Of a stretch of 64,000 nucleotides of DNA, positions 1 to 33,590 are shown piece by piece. The notes under the pieces were generated by a model, which saw only the letters and a list, made by a program, of their open reading frames with translations, ran no database searches and was not told the origin of the DNA. The position numbers and the translations under genes are program-made. Source of the DNA: Patescibacteria group bacterium (GTDB lineage: Bacteria > Patescibacteriota > Microgenomatia > JAMCZE01); the NCBI GenBank assembly GCA_023485845.1, contig JAMCZE010000007.1:11391-75390 (forward strand), written 5' to 3'. The first letter of the stretch is position 1. Each line of letters starts with the position of its first letter.

Positions 1-558
1 CAGAGGGATACCTTTGTCTTCTCCCAGTTCCGAATGGAAACTTTCTATCACCTGATCCAATAATCCGAGGATATCCGGATTCCCAATCTTTCTCTTGAGA
101 ATTTCCTTTAAAACTTTGTGGTCAATATTGGCAAAAAACTTTTTAACATCACACTTCAAAACCCAACAGGGTTGGGTATAATTTTTCGAGACCTTTCGCG
201 TAAATATTTCAAGGCGATCAACACCCTTATGGGTTCCCTTATTTAACCGACAAGAATAAGAATCAAAAATAAAAGTCGGGTCAAATAAATCATACAGATA
301 TTTATAAAGTAAATGGTGGACTATTCTGTCCGCCACGTCCGCTTTGTGAATATGGCGAACTTTGGGATCATAGACATAAAACTCTTCGTAGCCGCCATGC
401 TGATAAGTTTTGTTTTGCAAGCTTTCCTGTAAAACAAAGAGATTGTCTTCCAAGTGGCTCTCAAAAACTTGTAGGTTAACTCGCAGCTTCTTCCCTTTCC
501 TAAACCCTTTCCAAGCTTGAAAAAGATTTGATAGTGAAGTAAGCTCCGAATAATTCAT
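1..558 (-). CDS. DGR-type reverse transcriptase, N-terminal ~186 aa (gene continues beyond the window start)
   Basis: My own translation of the minus strand from the ATG at 556-558 gives MNYSELTSLSNLFQAWKGFRKGKKLR...YQHGGYEEFYVYDPKVRHIHKADVADRIVHHLLYKYL...FDSYSCRLNKGTH. The N-terminal and RT finger motifs (DPKxRxI..A..DRVVHHAL and SYxCRxGKGTH) are typical of DGR and retron-type RTs. It sits next to an Avd-like gene and a TR/VR pair. It is absent from the ORF track because it runs off the window edge. Confidence 0.8.
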   Translation of the reverse strand, partial: MNYSELTSLSNLFQAWKGFRKGKKLRVNLQVFESHLEDNLFVLQESLQNKTYQHGGYEEFYVYDPKVRHIHKADVADRIVHHLLYKYLYDLFDPTFIFDSYSCRLNKGTHKGVDRLEIFTRKVSKNYTQPCWVLKCDVKKFFANIDHKVLKEILKRKIGNPDILGLLDQVIESFHSELGEDKGIPL

Positions 559-936
559 ATGGACATATTTCCTGGCCTAGACATTCCCATCCTCACTAAA
601 ATTTATAGTTTTTACAGACTTTTATACCAATACCTTCGCTTTTTTCCGAAAAAAGATCGTTACACTTTGGGGCAAAAAATTGACAATCTAACTCTAGAAA
701 TTCTCGAGCTGGCGATTACCGCCGGGACCCAAGACCGAGATCAAAAACTCCCCTATTTAGAAAAGGCCGTTATTTCTGTTGATCTTCTTAAAATTCTTAT
801 CCGCTTAGCAAAAGACACCGGCGCTCTCGACGAAAAAAGATATTTAGAACTTCAAGGTCACCTCCAAGAAATGGGCAGGATGTTTGGGGGGTGGAAAAAA
901 CAAGCTACTATCTCAGAGCGACCGCCTATATTCTGA
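559..936 (+). CDS. avd: Avd-like four-helix-bundle protein (23S rRNA intervening-sequence protein family), DGR accessory variability determinant
   Basis: 125-aa ORF MDIFPGLDIPILTKIYSFYRLLYQYLRFFPKKDRYTLGQKIDNLTLEILELAITAG... shares the FPKxExY-L..QI......NIAEG-type signature with the other four-helix-bundle protein in this window (44649-45002). Its 3' end overlaps the start of the TR. Its ATG directly abuts the divergent RT start codon. Confidence 0.7.
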   Translation: MDIFPGLDIPILTKIYSFYRLLYQYLRFFPKKDRYTLGQKIDNLTLEILELAITAGTQDRDQKLPYLEKAVISVDLLKILIRLAKDTGALDEKRYLELQGHLQEMGRMFGGWKKQATISERPPIF

Positions 937-1010
937 TTGACATCCTCGGGCTTCAAATTCGAATTGACGTTCAAGTTACCATTCGAGTTGAAGTTGGCGT
1001 TGACAATTTG
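912..1010 (-). repeat. DGR template repeat (TR); the templating sense is the minus strand
   Basis: Gapless alignment of 914-1010 with 1228-1324 (offset 314) gives 79 identities in 97 positions. All 18 mismatches lie at plus-strand T, which is A on the minus strand. 18 of the 30 T positions are changed. The minus-strand translation is Asn-rich (NANFNSNGNLNVNSNL), i.e. AAC codons, the classic TR signature. Confidence 0.85.
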
Positions 1011-1213
1011 CCTTGTTTTGTCTTTAACACTATGATTCTCCAATTTTGTTGGATTGTCACTGAATTTTATTCGGGAGAAGCTCTAAAGCACCTCCACTAA
1101 AACTAAGGCAAGGAGTGTCTTGTTTTTCCAGTATACTTTCAATTTCGGTGTCCGAACTGCCAAATGACAGAAGGAATCATTGACCGAAAGAATAAAGGGA
1201 CAAAAACAAAAGT

Positions 1214-1921
1214 CTATCTCACTCCCTCAGAGCGACCGCCTATATCCTGAAGGACATCCCCGGGCTCCAAATACGAATGGACGTGCAAGCCACCATCCGA
1301 GCCGAAGCAGGCGTAGACAACCTGACCAACATGGCGAGACCCGAGATAACGAGACCAGGTAGGTCCCTCATCGAGATAATGATCTGTCAAGAGTTTACTT
1401 GCCTCGGATGCCAAAACACCAACTTTAAGTCTTGCCCCAACTCTTCCCTCATTGGCAAATCTCTCTTGCAATTGTCTTTCAGTAGTATTTCTGTAAGGAG
1501 CTTCTAACACTATCTCTATGTCGGTCCAACCAGCGGTTTCTCTTTCATCTTTTATAGTGCTGCCTTTAGCTACTGCCCAGCTACTCAAATGGGGGAACTT
1601 TTGCCCTAACTCTGGATAAGTAAAATTAGGTATATAGACTGGTCCTCGTTCCTTTTTAGCAAGACCTCTGAGCTCTGTCAAGCTGTAGGGACATTGAACA
1701 ATATCAGTAGCTGTCAAAAGAGATTGCCAGAAGTCGGTAACTACGTTAGGATTATAAGGCTCACTTTTAAGTGCTTTGACTACATTTTCATGCCGTCTTT
1801 CTGCAAGTGCCTGGGCAGACAATCTTACCGTTCCAAGGTGTGCCTCCATGAGAGTTCTTTCTTGGGCACTCAAATTGGAACGAGACAGTATCTTTTCTCC
1901 TTCTTTTACCCAGTCAATCAT
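1214..1921 (-). CDS. DGR variable (target) protein with the VR at its extreme C-terminus; probable C-type-lectin/FGE-like ligand-binding fold
   Basis: 235-aa ORF. The C-terminal ...VGQVVYACFGSDGGLHVHSYLEPGDVLQDIGGRSEGVR aligns to the TR translation QIVNANFNSNGNLNVNSNLKPEDVNQNIGGRSE. Asn codons of the TR correspond to Y, C, G, D, H, L etc. in this protein. Confidence 0.8.
   Translation of the reverse strand: MIDWVKEGEKILSRSNLSAQERTLMEAHLGTVRLSAQALAERRHENVVKALKSEPYNPNVVTDFWQSLLTATDIVQCPYSLTELRGLAKKERGPVYIPNFTYPELGQKFPHLSSWAVAKGSTIKDERETAGWTDIEIVLEAPYRNTTERQLQERFANEGRVGARLKVGVLASEASKLLTDHYLDEGPTWSRYLGSRHVGQVVYACFGSDGGLHVHSYLEPGDVLQDIGGRSEGVR
1226..1324 (-). repeat. DGR variable repeat (VR) inside the 3' end of the target gene
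   Basis: Counterpart of the TR at 912-1010. It differs only at adenine positions of the coding (minus) strand. The invariant GC-rich segment cagagcgaccgcc at the gene-3' side is identical in TR and VR, which makes it a candidate IMH. Confidence 0.85.
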
Positions 1922-3865: not shown

Positions 3866-4123
3866 TTGAGACAGATAGTTCTTACTCCACAAGATAACGA
3901 CGTCACTGTCTTGGCAAATGAGCAACTTGTTGCTCTTCATCAAAAAGATTTTGAGGAAGCCGGTCTCACCTTTTTCCCTAATTGGCGCCAGAGTCCAGAA
4001 TACCGCCAACTGTTGCGCGAAGGCTTACGCCAAAAATTATTGACAGAGAAGACCGAATTGATATTCGCCCTAAAAATCCCCTCTTCAGAACCGCCATCCG
4101 CCCCTAACTTTTTTGCAGCTTAA
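3866..4123 (+). CDS. hypothetical protein
   Basis: 85-aa ORF with protein-like composition. It overlaps a less plausible minus-strand ORF. Confidence 0.3.
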   Translation: MRQIVLTPQDNDVTVLANEQLVALHQKDFEEAGLTFFPNWRQSPEYRQLLREGLRQKLLTEKTELIFALKIPSSEPPSAPNFFAA

Positions 4124-5825
4124 CCATCTCTAAAATTTCCTTCAAGCTAGTCGTGTCTTCTGGATTCTTCTCCCGCCAGCGTTCGAGGCGAGGAAAACGC
4201 AAAGCATAGCCGGCCGTGTGCATCGGTGATTTAGTCAGCTCATCGGCTCGAAACTCCCCCACGATTTGTGGCTCAAGCCACTCATCACAAACCATTAGTT
4301 TATTGACGTCATAATTATTTGGTTTACTTTTGACTTTTAATTTTTGACTTTTAATTTTCAGGTCCCGCCACTCTTTGTCGGTTAACCCCGTTCCTACCTT
4401 ACTAATTGTTTTATATGAGTCAGTTTTTTTGTCATAAACGCCAATTAAAAACGATCCGACGCCAAATTTATTTCTTTTCCCCTGGCCAAAGTCATAGCCC
4501 ATGACCACGGCGTCAATCGTGTCATTTAATTTCTTGGTGTAACTGCCTTTTAGTTTAATCCAGTTCCAGCCCCGGGCCCCGGCTTGGTAAACGCCGTCCA
4601 GTTTCTTCACCATAATTCCTTCTAAATTTTTATTCAGCGCCTGCTGAAAAAGGGCTTCCAGGCGCTCGGCCAACTGCACAACCTCCATTTCGGCGGGAAT
4701 GATAATGGTGTCATGCTGAAATCTTTTCAGCATCTCCTCCACAATTTTTCGGCGGAACCCGTATGGCTTGTTTATTAAACTTTCGCCGTTTAAATAAAGA
4801 CAATCAAACACCACCAGCCGCAGCGGCACGTTGCCGGCAAAAGCCGCCACGTCATATTTCCGTTTGCGCTGGACAGTTTCCTGGAAAGGCAAGTATTTGC
4901 CGGTTTTGGGATCAAAACCAATGGCTTCCCCATCTAAAATCACCTCGTTGGCGGCAATCTCTTTTTTGGCTGCCGCCACTAAGTCAGGGTACATTGCCGT
5001 CACATCCTCGAGCCCGCGACTGAATAACCTAACAAAATCCAAGTTTTTAATAAAGTGCAACTGAGTTCGCAGGCCATCGAGTTTTGGTTCCACCGCGCAT
5101 TTTCCCCCCATTTTTTCCAGAATCTCGGCGGTGGAGGCCAGCCGTTCCGCCCGCATCACTAAAATCGGCGTGCCGACTTTCGGCTCGATTTTAATATTGG
5201 CCCCCCGCTGTTTAACTTCTTGGGCAATCACTCCCAGATCGGGGCGCACATCATAGGCCGCTTCAATATTGTCCTTGTGCTTTTTTGTCCCGTCGATCAT
5301 CCAAGACAACCCTTCCAGCATCGTCATGTCAGAAAAGCCCAGCCGAAGTTTGTCCACCGGAATCCGGGCAATATACCGCGCTGATAGCCCATCACTTCCG
5401 GCCAACAGGTCGGCCAGCAGCCCGATCTTTTTCTCCACCGATCCCTCGCCGCTGGAATCAGCAATCACTGTTAATTTCTCAAAAACTTCGCCAACCTGGA
5501 GGGTTGCACCCTGTTTCAGGGTGCAACCCTTTCGGAGCTCTTGTGCCGTCTCCCCCAGGTCTCCGCTCTTTTTAAACATTTGTGTCACCTTTTCACCGGA
5601 GACGCCATAGGCCTTGGCCAGGGCTCGAATCACCATTCTGTCGGCCATTCCAAACTCGATTGGTTCAAACAGCGGCGCCACCCGGCCCTGAAGAAGATAG
5701 GCAATTTTGTCAATTTCATCCGTCCCTGCCTCGGCAAACAACTGCGCCAAAATCTCGACCATGTTATTTCTCGACGCCGTCGACTCCAATTTGGAAAAAT
5801 ATTCAGCTAGTTTAGAAAAAGTCAT
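4104..5825 (-). CDS. lig: ATP-dependent DNA ligase
   Basis: 573 aa. Adenylation motif I KLDGLR within AVEPKLDGLRTQLHF. Overall archaeal/eukaryal-type ligase architecture with DNA-binding, adenylation and OB domains. Confidence 0.85.
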   Translation of the reverse strand: MTFSKLAEYFSKLESTASRNNMVEILAQLFAEAGTDEIDKIAYLLQGRVAPLFEPIEFGMADRMVIRALAKAYGVSGEKVTQMFKKSGDLGETAQELRKGCTLKQGATLQVGEVFEKLTVIADSSGEGSVEKKIGLLADLLAGSDGLSARYIARIPVDKLRLGFSDMTMLEGLSWMIDGTKKHKDNIEAAYDVRPDLGVIAQEVKQRGANIKIEPKVGTPILVMRAERLASTAEILEKMGGKCAVEPKLDGLRTQLHFIKNLDFVRLFSRGLEDVTAMYPDLVAAAKKEIAANEVILDGEAIGFDPKTGKYLPFQETVQRKRKYDVAAFAGNVPLRLVVFDCLYLNGESLINKPYGFRRKIVEEMLKRFQHDTIIIPAEMEVVQLAERLEALFQQALNKNLEGIMVKKLDGVYQAGARGWNWIKLKGSYTKKLNDTIDAVVMGYDFGQGKRNKFGVGSFLIGVYDKKTDSYKTISKVGTGLTDKEWRDLKIKSQKLKVKSKPNNYDVNKLMVCDEWLEPQIVGEFRADELTKSPMHTAGYALRFPRLERWREKNPEDTTSLKEILEMVKLQKS

Positions 5826-5827
5826 GG

Positions 5828-6874
5828 CTACTTCATCATATACCTCGCCGCTTTGGTTTTGCCCTTTTTCTTAATTATTTTCTTCTCCATCAGATCTTTT
5901 AAGTCGCGAAGAACCGTGTCTTCGGAGACCATCGGTAGGACGTCTTTAAACTCTTGGTTGGAAAGGTAGCCAATTTTTTCAATGTGTTCCACAATTTTCA
6001 CCTGGCGTTGGTTAAGAAAAATTTGTTTGCCCGCCTGGGCTTTCAGTTTTAAATCTAGGGACAGATGTTGGACCTGCTCCCGGACCCGATTAAACTCAAT
6101 TGCTACTCCTTCGACAAAATATTCTAACCATTGGGTGACATCATGATCCGGGTTTTGGTCGGCGGTTTTAATCGCATAATAGTAGGCCCCGACGTTCTTG
6201 TCATAGTATTCTTCTAAGGAAAAGAGTTTTCGAATGTCATAACCCTCGTTTAGAAGAATTAAGGTCGCCATCGCCCGGGAAACCCGGCCATTGCCCTCGG
6301 TGAACGGGTGGATGTTGACAATCGCGTAGTGGGTCACGCCGGCCTTAATAATCGGGTGCAGATCCCGGGTGGAGGGATCATTAATCCAGTCAAAAAAGTC
6401 CTCCATTTGGTAGGACACTTCCACGGCCGGGGGCGGCCGATGGACGATTTCGCCCGTTAAAACATCGCGCAGCACCACCTGCACTTTGCGCCACTTCCCC
6501 ACTTCCTCTTCGGGAATGATCCCCGCCACTGTTAATTTATGAAGCTCTCTTAGGGTGTCCTGATTATAAATATTCTTCTCACCCGACAGCTTCTCTAAAT
6601 AATCCAACACCTTGCGATAATTAACTACTTCTTTAACGTCCCGATCGCGGGCCACAATCTCTTTTCCCTCCATCACTTTCTTCACCTCTTCCAAGTTAAG
6701 TTCGTTGCCCTCGACATGAGTGCCGTAGTGCACCGCCCGCAGTTGGGCATCTTCGACAAACTTTGCTTCCCAGGCCGGTAGGAGCGCCGCCCCCTCAATC
6801 ACTGCTTTGGCCCCTTCCACCAACCCGATATCCTTTAATAACTTTGAGGTGATAGTAAATTTTGGCTGATACAT
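5828..6874 (-). CDS. Fic/DOC family protein (AMPylation-type Fic domain with C-terminal winged helix)
   Basis: Canonical Fic motif HPFTEGNGRVSRA in a 348-aa protein. Confidence 0.8.
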   Translation of the reverse strand: MYQPKFTITSKLLKDIGLVEGAKAVIEGAALLPAWEAKFVEDAQLRAVHYGTHVEGNELNLEEVKKVMEGKEIVARDRDVKEVVNYRKVLDYLEKLSGEKNIYNQDTLRELHKLTVAGIIPEEEVGKWRKVQVVLRDVLTGEIVHRPPPAVEVSYQMEDFFDWINDPSTRDLHPIIKAGVTHYAIVNIHPFTEGNGRVSRAMATLILLNEGYDIRKLFSLEEYYDKNVGAYYYAIKTADQNPDHDVTQWLEYFVEGVAIEFNRVREQVQHLSLDLKLKAQAGKQIFLNQRQVKIVEHIEKIGYLSNQEFKDVLPMVSEDTVLRDLKDLMEKKIIKKKGKTKAARYMMK

Positions 6875-21068: not shown

Positions 21069-21298
21069 CCACCTTGCCTCATTAAGCCGAATCTGTTAAA
21101 ATATATCCACAACTTAACAACGCGGGGTAGTGTACAGTTGCATGTCAGGCTAGTAGAAGTGGGCCCGTCTCGCAGGAATGCGAGAATGAAAATCCGGCTA
21201 AATCGGTGGACACCCCTGATAATTAGGGACAATACCGAGGGTAATCCGTAGAGACTACAAACCGGAGATCCAGAACGGATCATGATATAGTCCAACCC

Positions 21299-23227
21299 CT
21301 ATCGTAAGATGGGTAGGTGCATAATCTGACGGTCCGGATGCGACCTCCGGCCCCGCAACAAAGTGGGAACGGCGACCAAAAAGTCACCGCTTTTCGTTAT
21401 ATCTAGGCTCCAATCGTTGGATGCGACCATTTTTCCAATCATCGGAGCCGACTTTTTCATCTCCACAATTTTTTCAAAATAGAACGGGGCGTCAAAATTG
21501 ACCGTTTTATCTAAAAGGGTCGGATGCGAACCACACAAGCCCACAAAAATGTCCCGCTTCACCTTCGGGTCGGTGGTATTATTGAACTTCTCCCTGGCTT
21601 CCGCAGCGAAAGTAATCGCCTCAACAGTTTTATTGTTAGCCCGGATCATCCGGTCGTCAATATTCGTCAGTTGACTCTCTATATTTCTTATCTCTTCTTC
21701 CAGGGGAACTTTCCGAGACTTAAACTCTTCATCGTTTAACAAACTGCCGTCACTATTGCCCGGAGATATCTTGAGGGCCACCAGATTATCCAACCGCTTT
21801 CTGGCGTCATCGTAAGCATTCTTAGTGGCTTCTATTGTGCTTTCCCGGAAGCCTTTCTCGTCTTCGTGCATCCGGCGGATCTGTTCAATCGCCCACTCCA
21901 GAAATTTAGGATTGAGTTCAACTTCGGCAAGTCTCCGGTCAATTTGTTTCTCCAGTTGCTTCTCACTAACGCTTAGTTCCTTGCAGGAAGTGTCAGTGTG
22001 CCGGTGGCAACGATGATAAATATAATGGGAAATTCTTGACTGGGGCATTTCGGCAATAAGTAGGCTGCACTGGGGACAGCGATCTGGGTTCTTGCGGGTG
22101 AGCTGGAATTTCTTCCGGCACCGGGAACAAATAACCTGCCATTTGCCATCAATAACTACTCCTGACCCACAATTCCCACATCGCAGGGTGTGGCCATAGG
22201 CATAGTTGTGGCTGGTTGTTTTCTGACTGACATTGCCAAGTTTGACCTGGACTTGATTAAAAACCTCCTCGCTGATGACCCTCTCCAGTCCGGGGTTGTT
22301 GTTGTGCCATTTGCCGCTGTCCACCGGATATTCAAACCGGCCGCAGTAGAACGGATTATTCAAAATCCGGTAAATCTCACTCTCTGAAAGCAAGTGCCCG
22401 CCGATTCGCTTATGCTGACGGGTCATCAAATGCCACTCCTTGCAAGCTGTCCGGTGGATTGCCCGGACGGAGTTGCCGGCCAGAAAAAGTTCAAAGATTT
22501 TTTTAACAAACGGCAGCCGTTCCTGGTCAACATAGATTTTGCGAAAGCCGCTCTCTGTCCTCTTATCATTCAGATAGCCAATTGGTGCCCAGCCCGGCCG
22601 CCAGCCATCCCGACATTTTTTCTCCAATCCCCGTGACACCACAATGCTTTTATCGTCACTGTCCTTTTTAGAGAGAGAAAATTCCAACCCCAGCATAAAT
22701 TTATCCTCCGGCGTGTTGTGGTAGGTTCGTGACGGCGTGACGATTTCCAGCAGTTTGCCGCTGTCCATTAAAAAGATGATGTAGCCGCCGTCCACCGGGT
22801 TGCGGGCCAGCCGGTTAGCGTGCCAGGTGACAATGGCGTTAGCCTCACCGGACTTAATAGCTTCCACCATGCCCTTAAAAGCATCCCGCTGTTCTGGGGT
22901 GTGGGCAGACTTACTTTCCTGAAGAACATCTTTAATCTTTAGGCCCAGTTTATCTTTGAGACCATCAATAATATAAAGCTGGTCAGGCAATGACGCCGCC
23001 TGCCGCTCTTTATTATCTTCGGAGCTTTTCCGGGCGTAACCTATGTATTTGAGAGCAACTTGTGTGTTCATAAATAATGCCCCCACTGGTGTGCTCAAGT
23101 CGGTGAAGACTTGTCCAATGAGGGCATTAAAAATCTCCACCACTTCACTTGAGCACGATTCCATTTTTCTCTCTTTTGCCGTTCTTGTCAATATCCGGGA
23201 GGTTATCGCCATAAACTGCCTTAACAA
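21299..23227 (-). CDS. large serine recombinase (resolvase/invertase catalytic domain + recombinase domain + zinc ribbon + coiled coil)
   Basis: YIGYARKSSEDN catalytic-serine region. Cys-rich zinc ribbon CGNCGSG...CSRCRKKF...CPQC. C-terminal coiled coil. The likely true start is the internal MNTQVALKYIGY. Confidence 0.8.
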   Translation of the reverse strand: MLRQFMAITSRILTRTAKERKMESCSSEVVEIFNALIGQVFTDLSTPVGALFMNTQVALKYIGYARKSSEDNKERQAASLPDQLYIIDGLKDKLGLKIKDVLQESKSAHTPEQRDAFKGMVEAIKSGEANAIVTWHANRLARNPVDGGYIIFLMDSGKLLEIVTPSRTYHNTPEDKFMLGLEFSLSKKDSDDKSIVVSRGLEKKCRDGWRPGWAPIGYLNDKRTESGFRKIYVDQERLPFVKKIFELFLAGNSVRAIHRTACKEWHLMTRQHKRIGGHLLSESEIYRILNNPFYCGRFEYPVDSGKWHNNNPGLERVISEEVFNQVQVKLGNVSQKTTSHNYAYGHTLRCGNCGSGVVIDGKWQVICSRCRKKFQLTRKNPDRCPQCSLLIAEMPQSRISHYIYHRCHRHTDTSCKELSVSEKQLEKQIDRRLAEVELNPKFLEWAIEQIRRMHEDEKGFRESTIEATKNAYDDARKRLDNLVALKISPGNSDGSLLNDEEFKSRKVPLEEEIRNIESQLTNIDDRMIRANNKTVEAITFAAEAREKFNNTTDPKVKRDIFVGLCGSHPTLLDKTVNFDAPFYFEKIVEMKKSAPMIGKMVASNDWSLDITKSGDFLVAVPTLLRGRRSHPDRQIMHLPILR

Positions 23228-32918: not shown

Positions 32919-32990
32919 GGAACCGTAGCTCAACGGTAGAGCAAATGTCTTATACACATTACGTTGGAGGTTCGAATCCTCCCGGTTCCA
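32919..32990 (+). tRNA. tRNA with anticodon TAT (tRNA-Ile, UAU)
   Basis: Acceptor GGAACCG/CGGTTCC. D-arm GCTC-AACGGTA-GAGC. Anticodon stem AATGT/ACATT with loop CTTATAC. T-arm GGAGG-TTCGAAT-CCTCC. Discriminator A. Confidence 0.75.
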
Positions 32991-33590
32991 CTAAACTTCC
33001 ACTTTTATATACCCTCCTTTTTGCAAATAGCCCTGGACGCCTTCACTGACAGCGTATATGTCTTTGCCTTCCAAGCTATATTTTAAAACCATAATCGGGT
33101 CGCCGTGGGAAACAGCAATGACATTGTGGTCTTTATGCTTTTGAGCAATTTCATCTAAAAATGATCTCATCCGCGCTGCCACCTCTTCTGGCTTCTCTCC
33201 TCTTTCCAACTGTTGGGGAAAACGATAAAGACTTTTCTCTCCGCGCATCTTTTCAAACTCGTCCTTATCCATTCCTTGAAATGGAGATTTTAGTTCAATT
33301 AAGCGGTCGTCAACGGTCACCGGCAAGTTTAGTTTCTCCCCGATAATCGCCGCCGACTCCCGACAGCGCTGAACAGGACTGGTGTAGATAGCCGCAATGT
33401 TTTTGGCAGAAAACTGGTCGGCCAGGGTCTCGATTTGCGCCCGACCCACGGCACTTAGGGCAAACCCGGGCAACCACAGGGGGACAATATTTTTGGGGTT
33501 CTCAATTTCTCCGTGGCGGACAAAATAAACAGTGGTCATTCTTAACCGGCTGCTAATTTGAGATCCTCGTTGGCCTTTTCCATCAGCCAC
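32991..33590 (-). CDS. histidine phosphatase family protein (phosphoglycerate mutase-like)
   Basis: VYFVRHGEIENP (RHG motif) and the downstream catalytic His in ...AVSHGD. Confidence 0.8.
   Translation of the reverse strand: MADGKGQRGSQISSRLRMTTVYFVRHGEIENPKNIVPLWLPGFALSAVGRAQIETLADQFSAKNIAAIYTSPVQRCRESAAIIGEKLNLPVTVDDRLIELKSPFQGMDKDEFEKMRGEKSLYRFPQQLERGEKPEEVAARMRSFLDEIAQKHKDHNVIAVSHGDPIMVLKYSLEGKDIYAVSEGVQGYLQKGGYIKVEV

Follow-up and report, generated by a model that had tools for sequence, protein, structure and literature searches.

The first 1,921 nucleotides of the DNA analyzed here, a stretch of 64,000 nucleotides (the window) from an ultra-small bacterium of the Patescibacteria group (GTDB lineage Patescibacteriota; Microgenomatia; JAMCZE01; assembly GCA_023485845.1, contig JAMCZE010000007.1, positions 11,391 to 75,390 of the forward strand), carry the components of a diversity-generating retroelement (DGR): a reverse transcriptase (RT) gene, avd as accessory gene, a template repeat (TR), and a target gene that ends in a variable repeat (VR). 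TR, VR, target and RT are found on the minus strand, and avd alone on the plus strand:

1-558, minus strand: DGR RT gene, 5' part (codons 1-186, start codon 558-556), with a partial match to Pfam RVT_1; the gene continues past the window edge
559-936, plus strand: avd (accessory variability determinant), 125 aa, Pfam PF22296 and NCBIfam NF033474
912-1010, minus strand: TR; secure homology to the VR spans 912-1006, and the 5' boundary was redrawn from an alignment with four relatives
1226-1324, minus strand: VR, in frame at the 3' end of the target open reading frame (ORF), codons 200-232 of 235
1214-1921, minus strand: target gene, 235 aa; in its model, three long N-terminal helices are followed by a domain resembling C-type lectins and the formylglycine-generating enzyme (FGE), and the VR forms the last beta-strands

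An earlier note, made from the sequence of this DNA, had called the DGR complete; all defining components were indeed found, but the RT gene is cut at position 1 and lies only partly inside the window. The comparison set used below consists of 84 related loci with RTs of 46-64% identity, four of them from GTDB genomes and 80 from metagenomes.

The TR and the VR align without gaps at an offset of 314 nt, with 81 identities and 18 mismatches over 99 positions. Every one of the 18 mismatches falls on a plus-strand T of the TR, which is an A on the minus, functional strand, and none on the 68 non-adenine positions; 18 of the 31 TR adenines are altered in the VR, and the chance of all 18 mismatches landing on the 31 T positions is P = 8.2e-12 (hypergeometric). 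By type of base change on the coding strand, A>G accounts for 11 mismatches, A>T for 4 and A>C for 3. The gapless alignment and adenine-specific differences reported in the earlier note are borne out; its counts of 79 identities in 97 positions and 18 altered adenines out of 30 had been miscounted by two, with no consequence. Two of the mismatches, the A>G changes at 1007 and 1008, are doubtful because the TR has lost approximately 30 nt at its 5' end and the VR retains the ancestral CAGG; the tetranucleotide CAAA at 1010-1007 is upstream flank at the deletion edge, and the two changes are probably not the product of mutagenesis. Discounting them, all 16 remaining mismatches are at adenines, and 16 of 29 adenines are changed.

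At the codon level, the differences cluster at the first and second positions of asparagine codons. The TR contains ten of these (five AAC and five AAT), and all ten differ in the VR, where the ten places code for Y, C, G, D, G, H, H, Y, L and D; besides these, AAG>GAG and GAG>GGG changes distinguish the two repeats. The earlier note was right that asparagine codons are recoded (to Y, C, G, D, H and L), but had described the mutagenized codons as AAC only, whereas half of them are AAT. With at least 12 residues recoded, the theoretical repertoire of the VR is approximately 1e13 or more. The last 20 nt of TR (912-931) and VR (1226-1245) are identical although they contain adenines; this GC-rich end, which includes GGCGGTCGCTCTGAG, is a putative boundary resembling the initiation of mutagenic homing (IMH) site. 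Immediately past it the copies diverge (AUAGU after the TR, GGAGU after the VR), and the same pattern recurs in the two close relatives L003 and L005. No GC-rich, cruciform-type repeat follows the IMH-like end in the window, and an adenine-tolerant scan of both strands of the 64 kb yielded no second VR or target.

The remainder of the RT gene was read from contigs 100% identical to the window, retrieved by exact look-up of the Avd and target proteins; one of these (L001) showed no mismatch to the window over the 6950 nt compared, and the RT is intact on L001 and L090. The full-length RT of 337 aa carries the motifs IPLGNLTSQ and RYADDF and scores 79.5 bits against Pfam RVT_1. Its top sequence match in the PDB was 8ub7_A, a 328-aa reverse transcriptase (E 8e-40, residues 4-314), followed by a retron-type RT (3e-16) and then by group II intron RTs (about 1e-16); from the 328-aa chain length, we take the entries 8ub7-8ube to be structures of the Bordetella bRT-Avd:RNA complex. 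The DGR-type RT proposed in the earlier note is upheld by the signature LGNLTSQ and by the match to 8ub7_A, and the catalytic YxDD box that it had asked for beyond the window edge is present as YADD in the 337-aa ORF of the identical contigs.

The predicted Avd protein scores above the curated cut-offs of both Pfam PF22296 bAvd (69.7 bits; cut-off 40) and NCBIfam NF033474 DivGenRetAVD (83.8 bits; cut-off 80), which confirms the earlier assignment of an Avd gene beside the RT, although its position on the opposite strand had been missed. An identical protein has already been named “diversity-generating retroelement protein Avd” by NCBI in two records of Patescibacteria metagenome-assembled genomes. 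The avd and RT genes are divergent, with start codons back to back (CAT and ATG at 556-561), and the last 25 nt of avd overlap the TR on the opposite strand.

The target protein had no sequence matches in Pfam (FGE-sulfatase and DUF1566 included), NCBIfam or the PDB, by single sequence or by profiles, and only three close homologs were found among 5.8 billion clusters. A profile search against 1.84 billion representatives recovered 326 relatives, counted at 50% identity, 199 of them at E<=1e-10; this family is without a Pfam model. An AlphaFold2 model built on a 100-sequence alignment reached a confidence (pLDDT) of 96, compared to 36 with only four close homologs. Its structural neighbors include the FGE paralog SUMF2 (8.4), the DGR variable proteins TvpA (7.1) and Mtd (6.9), dozens of C-type lectin domains (about 6), and FGE-like domains of the EgtB, PvdO and CarF types; in Foldseek searches, neither the PDB nor the viral models yielded a significant E-value for it. 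The C-type-lectin fold that the earlier note had proposed for the target is well supported by this confident model and by the neighbors SUMF2, TvpA and Mtd, yet Mtd (1yu0) and TvpA (2y3c) share only 9-14% sequence identity with the target, which has an N-terminal region of three long helices (approximately its first 70 residues). The target is soluble and lacks a classical signal peptide, since no hydrophobic 19-residue window occurs in it (one of 100 family members has one); an intracellular location, as put forward in the earlier note, is plausible from its sequence. The C-terminal motif of the target is LGGRSxGV(K/R); the common motif of DGR variable proteins is GFR. Residues that vary among four family members (P0001-P0004) coincide with the adenine-templated codons.

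In its overall design, the locus is an ordinary DGR, one more among thousands. It is very probably a chromosomal element of the kind found in the candidate phyla radiation (CPR), with the order VR-TR-(avd)-RT and hence architecture B3, TR-(avd)-RT, which accounts for 90% of CPR DGRs (Wu et al., 2018, Nucleic Acids Research; PMC5758913). An avd gene on the opposite strand upstream of the RT was present in all 75 related loci in which avd was detected; in 45 of 48 loci the TR shared the strand of the RT and was placed upstream of avd; and an adenine-biased repeat pattern beside homologous RT and avd genes was found in 48 of 84. The close relatives L003 and L005 have adenine-biased TR/VR pairs of their own, in which the TR is conserved and the VRs are different. 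The target family is common to only two of 49 related loci, which fits the known diversity of CPR targets. The element is regarded as chromosomal because the flanking genes are cellular, coding for peptidyl-tRNA hydrolase (Pth), an ATP-dependent DNA ligase, a Fic-domain protein and a thioredoxin system; a location within a prophage was considered and rejected, the neighbors being housekeeping genes.

Like the B3 DGRs of CPR and DPANN genomes (PMC5758913), the locus has a small unannotated target whose 3' end holds the VR, some hundreds of nucleotides upstream of the TR, and it is chromosomal in a Patescibacteria host; it differs from them in its cut-down TR and in the missing hairpin after the TR. 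With the DGR of Bordetella phage BPP-1 (mtd-avd-TR-brt) it has in common the adenine-specific flow from TR to VR, the pairing of RT and Avd, the GC-rich IMH-like end and a target of C-type-lectin fold. In contrast to BPP-1, where avd lies upstream of the TR, avd is here inverted and downstream of the TR; the element is chromosomal and not phage-borne, and the target is a soluble protein of 235 aa and not the tip of a tail fiber.

The stretch of approximately 125 nt between the target stop codon and the TR is conserved among the related loci. Of 46 loci, 21 have the 10-mer TAAAAT[TA]CAG at a distance of 57-124 nt upstream of the TR and, with one exception, no second copy. Comparison of the related loci resolves this region into a three-way-junction RNA directly upstream of the TR and an outer flank duplex that brackets junction and TR together:

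1008-1111, minus strand: three-way-junction RNA, abutting the 5' end of the TR (17-locus RNAalifold consensus and covariance model R1)
1099-1111 paired with 1008-1019, minus strand: P0, closing helix of 12 bp, whose 3' strand ends 0-15 nt from the TR across loci
1074-1095, minus strand: P1 hairpin, from the 17-locus alignment fold
1061-1073, minus strand: conserved single strand CGAAUAAAAUUCA, consensus GAAUAAAAUWCAG
1032-1060, minus strand: P2 hairpin, of variable length among loci
1020-1031, minus strand: conserved joining strand AGUGUUAAAGAC, consensus NGUGR
1114-1130, minus strand: 5' strand of the flank duplex, UGGAAAAACAAGACACU, ending 2 nt before P0
892-909, minus strand: 3' strand of the flank duplex, AGUAGCUUGUUUUUUCCA, just 3' of the TR; an inverted repeat that pairs with 1114-1130

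In the RNAalifold consensus of 17 loci, 25 of the 29 base pairs show compensatory changes, and 93.8% of the alignment cells are paired, as against 67% in column shuffles and 42-50% when the pairing partners are slid. The covariance model R1 matches the window at 1002-1122 on the minus strand (99.2 bits, E 3e-24). Of 87 sources, 62 yield a match, one per locus, and 45 of the 62 had played no part in building the model; all matches are on the TR strand, and in the loci compared they end at or near the start of the TR. Across the 62 sequences, in an alignment fitted to the model, 94.9% of cells are paired and 28 of the 29 pairs show compensatory changes. In three loci (L022, 2255-2491; L023, 169-405; L041, 1593-1806), TR and junction have been inverted as a unit with respect to the RT, which has the VR downstream of it. 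The junction travels with the TR and not with the RT.

The two strands of the flank duplex (1130-1114 and 909-892) pair in the window with -14.6 kcal/mol (RNAduplex), a value reached by none of 200 shuffles. Among 42 loci, cognate flank pairs average -14.0 kcal/mol and non-cognate pairs -9.5 kcal/mol (p 3e-9), despite their differing sequences, and in 11 loci the cognate partner comes out on top of all 42. The two strands are approximately 20 nt each; in most loci the upstream one ends 0-2 nt before P0, and the first position of the downstream one lies from -9 to +3 relative to the end of the TR. An RNAduplex comparison of long flanks (160 x 80 nt) produced meaningless extended “duplexes” and was given up; the short-flank and cognate versus non-cognate tests were used instead. 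Between the target stop codon and the flank duplex, the segment 1131-1213 (minus strand) is conserved in L003 and L005 and contains a small hairpin, UUCGG-ACA-CCGAA.

A third element follows the TR. The 85 nt past the TR hold a hairpin of -10 kcal/mol or less in 41 of 48 relatives (median -15.5 kcal/mol), mostly compact, near-perfect, and starting 1-20 nt after the TR; it is weak in the closest relatives L003 and L005. Many of the post-TR hairpins in the loci L006-L089 carry an A-run on the 5' side and a U-run on the 3' side (for example AAAAACGUCC...GGACGUUUUU in L064); beyond any part played in Avd binding, such hairpins could also act as bidirectional intrinsic terminators, ending both the TR RNA and the avd mRNA that converges on it. 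Scans for promoters and terminators gave consensus-level matches only, which were not relied on.

No Rfam family, the RT motifs included, matched positions 500-1400 of the window even at E<=1, and a published description of a junction RNA 5' of the TR was not found in the papers searched. Structured RNAs are known to adjoin DGR RT genes, as in RT-10 and other RT-associated motifs (Weinberg et al., 2017; PMC5737381); the junction differs from RT-10-type motifs in having no Rfam match and in its position 5' of the TR. In their survey of DGR RNA elements, Handa et al. looked at only 40 nt upstream of the TR (bioRxiv 10.1101/2023.10.23.563531), so that the junction lay outside the stretch covered. 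Junction and flank duplex constitute a strongly covarying and apparently undescribed RNA scaffold 5' of the TR in this RT clade.

These conserved, covarying elements suggest how mutagenic homing would proceed at this locus. Since the TR/VR differences are confined to adenines, and in line with the established Bordetella mechanism, we infer that the RT-Avd complex reverse-transcribes the TR and misincorporates nucleotides opposite template adenines. The template would be a single minus-strand RNA, a transcript inferred to join the 5' flank strand (1130-1114), the junction (1111-1008), the TR (1010 or 1006 to 912) and the 3' flank strand (909-892). The complementary DNA (cDNA) would overwrite the VR (1324-1226) at the target gene's 3' end, with GGCGGTCGCTCTGAG as the IMH-like boundary, and leave the template unchanged; the outcome would be a protein in which the recoded residues, those of the ten asparagine codons included, are displayed on the last beta-strands of the C-type-lectin-fold domain. 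In Bordetella, RT-Avd binds a structured RNA, primes in cis, and stops at a structured roadblock at the 5' end of the TR (bioRxiv 10.1101/2023.10.23.563531). By analogy, a primer-like strand would be delivered to the TR's 3' end through the flank duplex, synthesis would halt at P0, which ends at the 5' boundary of the TR, and protein binding would fall to P1, the conserved single strand and P2.

The comparison with Bordetella can be taken one step further. There, the RNA begins with a strand A upstream of the TR, followed by the TR, an Avd stem-loop, a primer strand that pairs with the 3' end of the TR, 2 nt, and a strand B that pairs with A; after strand B come a stem-loop, a single strand, and a long bRT-binding stem-loop toward the 3' end (bioRxiv 10.1101/2023.10.23.563531). 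The RNA of the present RT clade begins with a strand that pairs 3' of the TR, followed after 0-2 nt by the 5' strand of P0, P1, the single strand, P2, the 3' strand of P0, the TR, the partner of the first strand, and a hairpin. Both RNAs have the same set of modules, which follow one cyclic order that is opened at a different point in each; in both, sequences upstream and downstream of the TR pair with each other; P0, in addition, pairs the 12 nt directly upstream of the TR with 1111-1099. They differ in that the structured RNA lies here 5' and not 3' of the TR, and in that an Avd-type stem-loop directly 3' of the TR is missing from the window copy. A tentative reading of this correspondence, to which we give somewhat less than even credence, is that B3-type CPR DGRs use a DGR RNA that is circularly permuted relative to that of Bordetella, and that only the Avd-type hairpin stays 3' of the TR.

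Several observations weigh against a working DGR of this kind in the window, which the earlier note had described as active or recently active. Relative to the four closest relatives (L003, L005, L013 and L017), which keep both segments, the TR is short by approximately 30 nt at its 5' end, and approximately 26 nt after the TR are lost, including the hairpin region and the usual stop codon of avd, so that Avd reads through into a tail of 11 aa (QATISERPPIF). The post-TR hairpin that most relatives possess is missing, the best local structure within 85 nt reaching -5.1 kcal/mol; in Bordetella, the Avd-binding stem-loop occupies the same position after the TR, and its deletion reduces cDNA synthesis (bioRxiv 10.1101/2023.10.23.563531). 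The exact target protein occurs on five contigs from at least three samples or assemblies, with no variant in its 90%-identity cluster, and the VR is the same in every assembly that has it; across the VR, the contigs L001 and L002 match the window in every base. These contigs are consensus assemblies and possibly represent one clonal population. As to the RNA, the TR region folded from the window sequence alone shows no excess stability (z -0.55), and the RNA model draws entirely on comparative data; the priming and stop roles of the flank duplex and P0 are assigned by analogy only.

The strongest alternative built on these observations accepts the element as a genuine DGR, but sees in it the fossil of past mutagenic homing: the two deletions beside the TR, which are derived to judge from the relatives, would have disabled cDNA synthesis or homing, and the VR would since have been frozen. 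Decay does occur in this lineage, as its relative L003 is clearly dead by a deletion that fuses avd and RT. Conversely, the 68 non-adenine positions of TR and VR are free of mismatches, which argues that the last homing event was recent relative to the rate of point mutation; the RT, the Avd core, the target ORF, the junction (99 bits) and the flank duplex are all intact; and the downstream deletion leaves the flank duplex continuous. The hairpin may be dispensable in this subclade, given its weak form in L003 and L005, and the assemblies with identical VR may sample a single clonal population. On balance, present silence is a serious alternative, which we consider somewhat less probable than not. 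In the L003 locus (1644-2430), the deletion has taken away the 5' ends of both genes, so that what is left of avd (residue ~37 onward) meets the rest of the RT (residue ~156 onward) head to head; this DGR is dead yet its TR and VR are still adenine-biased, and an assembly artifact is possible.

The two alternatives that would deny a DGR altogether are exceedingly improbable. That the RT belongs to another system (a group II intron, a retron or a defense-associated RT) and that the repeat is unrelated to it could appeal to sub-cut-off scores against NCBIfam group II intron, Drt and retron models, but all of these are far below threshold (the best is 136 bits against a cut-off of 300), among solved relatives 8ub7_A leads by 24 orders of magnitude in E-value, the RT carries the DGR signature LGNLTSQ and has the DGR-specific partner Avd next to it, and Rfam finds no group II intron or retron RNA in 500-1400. 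An ordinary duplication that diverged by point mutation, with the RT and avd genes nearby by coincidence, would account for the direct repeat and for nothing further; it is practically dismissed by 18 differences that all fall on one base of one copy (P 8e-12), by their concentration at the first two positions of asparagine codons, and by the recurrence of the same adenine-biased pattern beside RT and avd in 48 of 84 loci.

Beyond the DGR, some neighboring features of the window deserve mention. The 573-aa ATP-dependent DNA ligase (4104-5825, minus strand; Pfam DNA_ligase_A_N, _M and _C) forms a co-directional array with the DGR target gene, and the Fic-domain gene (5828-6874) adjoins the ligase gene. 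Farther into the window, an Rfam match to group I introns (21142-21314, plus strand; 52.2 bits, cut-off 50) lies outside any rRNA or tRNA gene found in the window and abuts the 3' end of a 642-aa ORF (21299-23227, minus strand) that, by eye, reads as a large serine recombinase; the match may belong to a mobile element that has integrated here, or be an intron-like RNA standing on its own. A tRNA-Ile with a UAU anticodon (32919-32991, plus strand; ARAGORN, and Rfam with 73.5 bits) was found instead of the usual CAU/lysidine tRNA-Ile2.

For the biology of these organisms, the locus is a further case in which Patescibacteria, with their reduced genomes, have retained hypermutation machinery directed at small soluble proteins of lectin fold. 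A target family of at least 326 representatives without a Pfam model gains a confident C-type-lectin-fold model, and the junction and flank duplex offer a concrete, testable model for the priming and stopping of cDNA synthesis in DGRs with inverted avd. If the RNA is indeed permuted relative to that of Bordetella, the permutation would account for the ability of avd to lie in inverted orientation right behind the TR, and the RNA would represent a new and widespread family of structured RNA that is absent from Rfam, of which the window copy would be a natural variant without the 3' hairpin.

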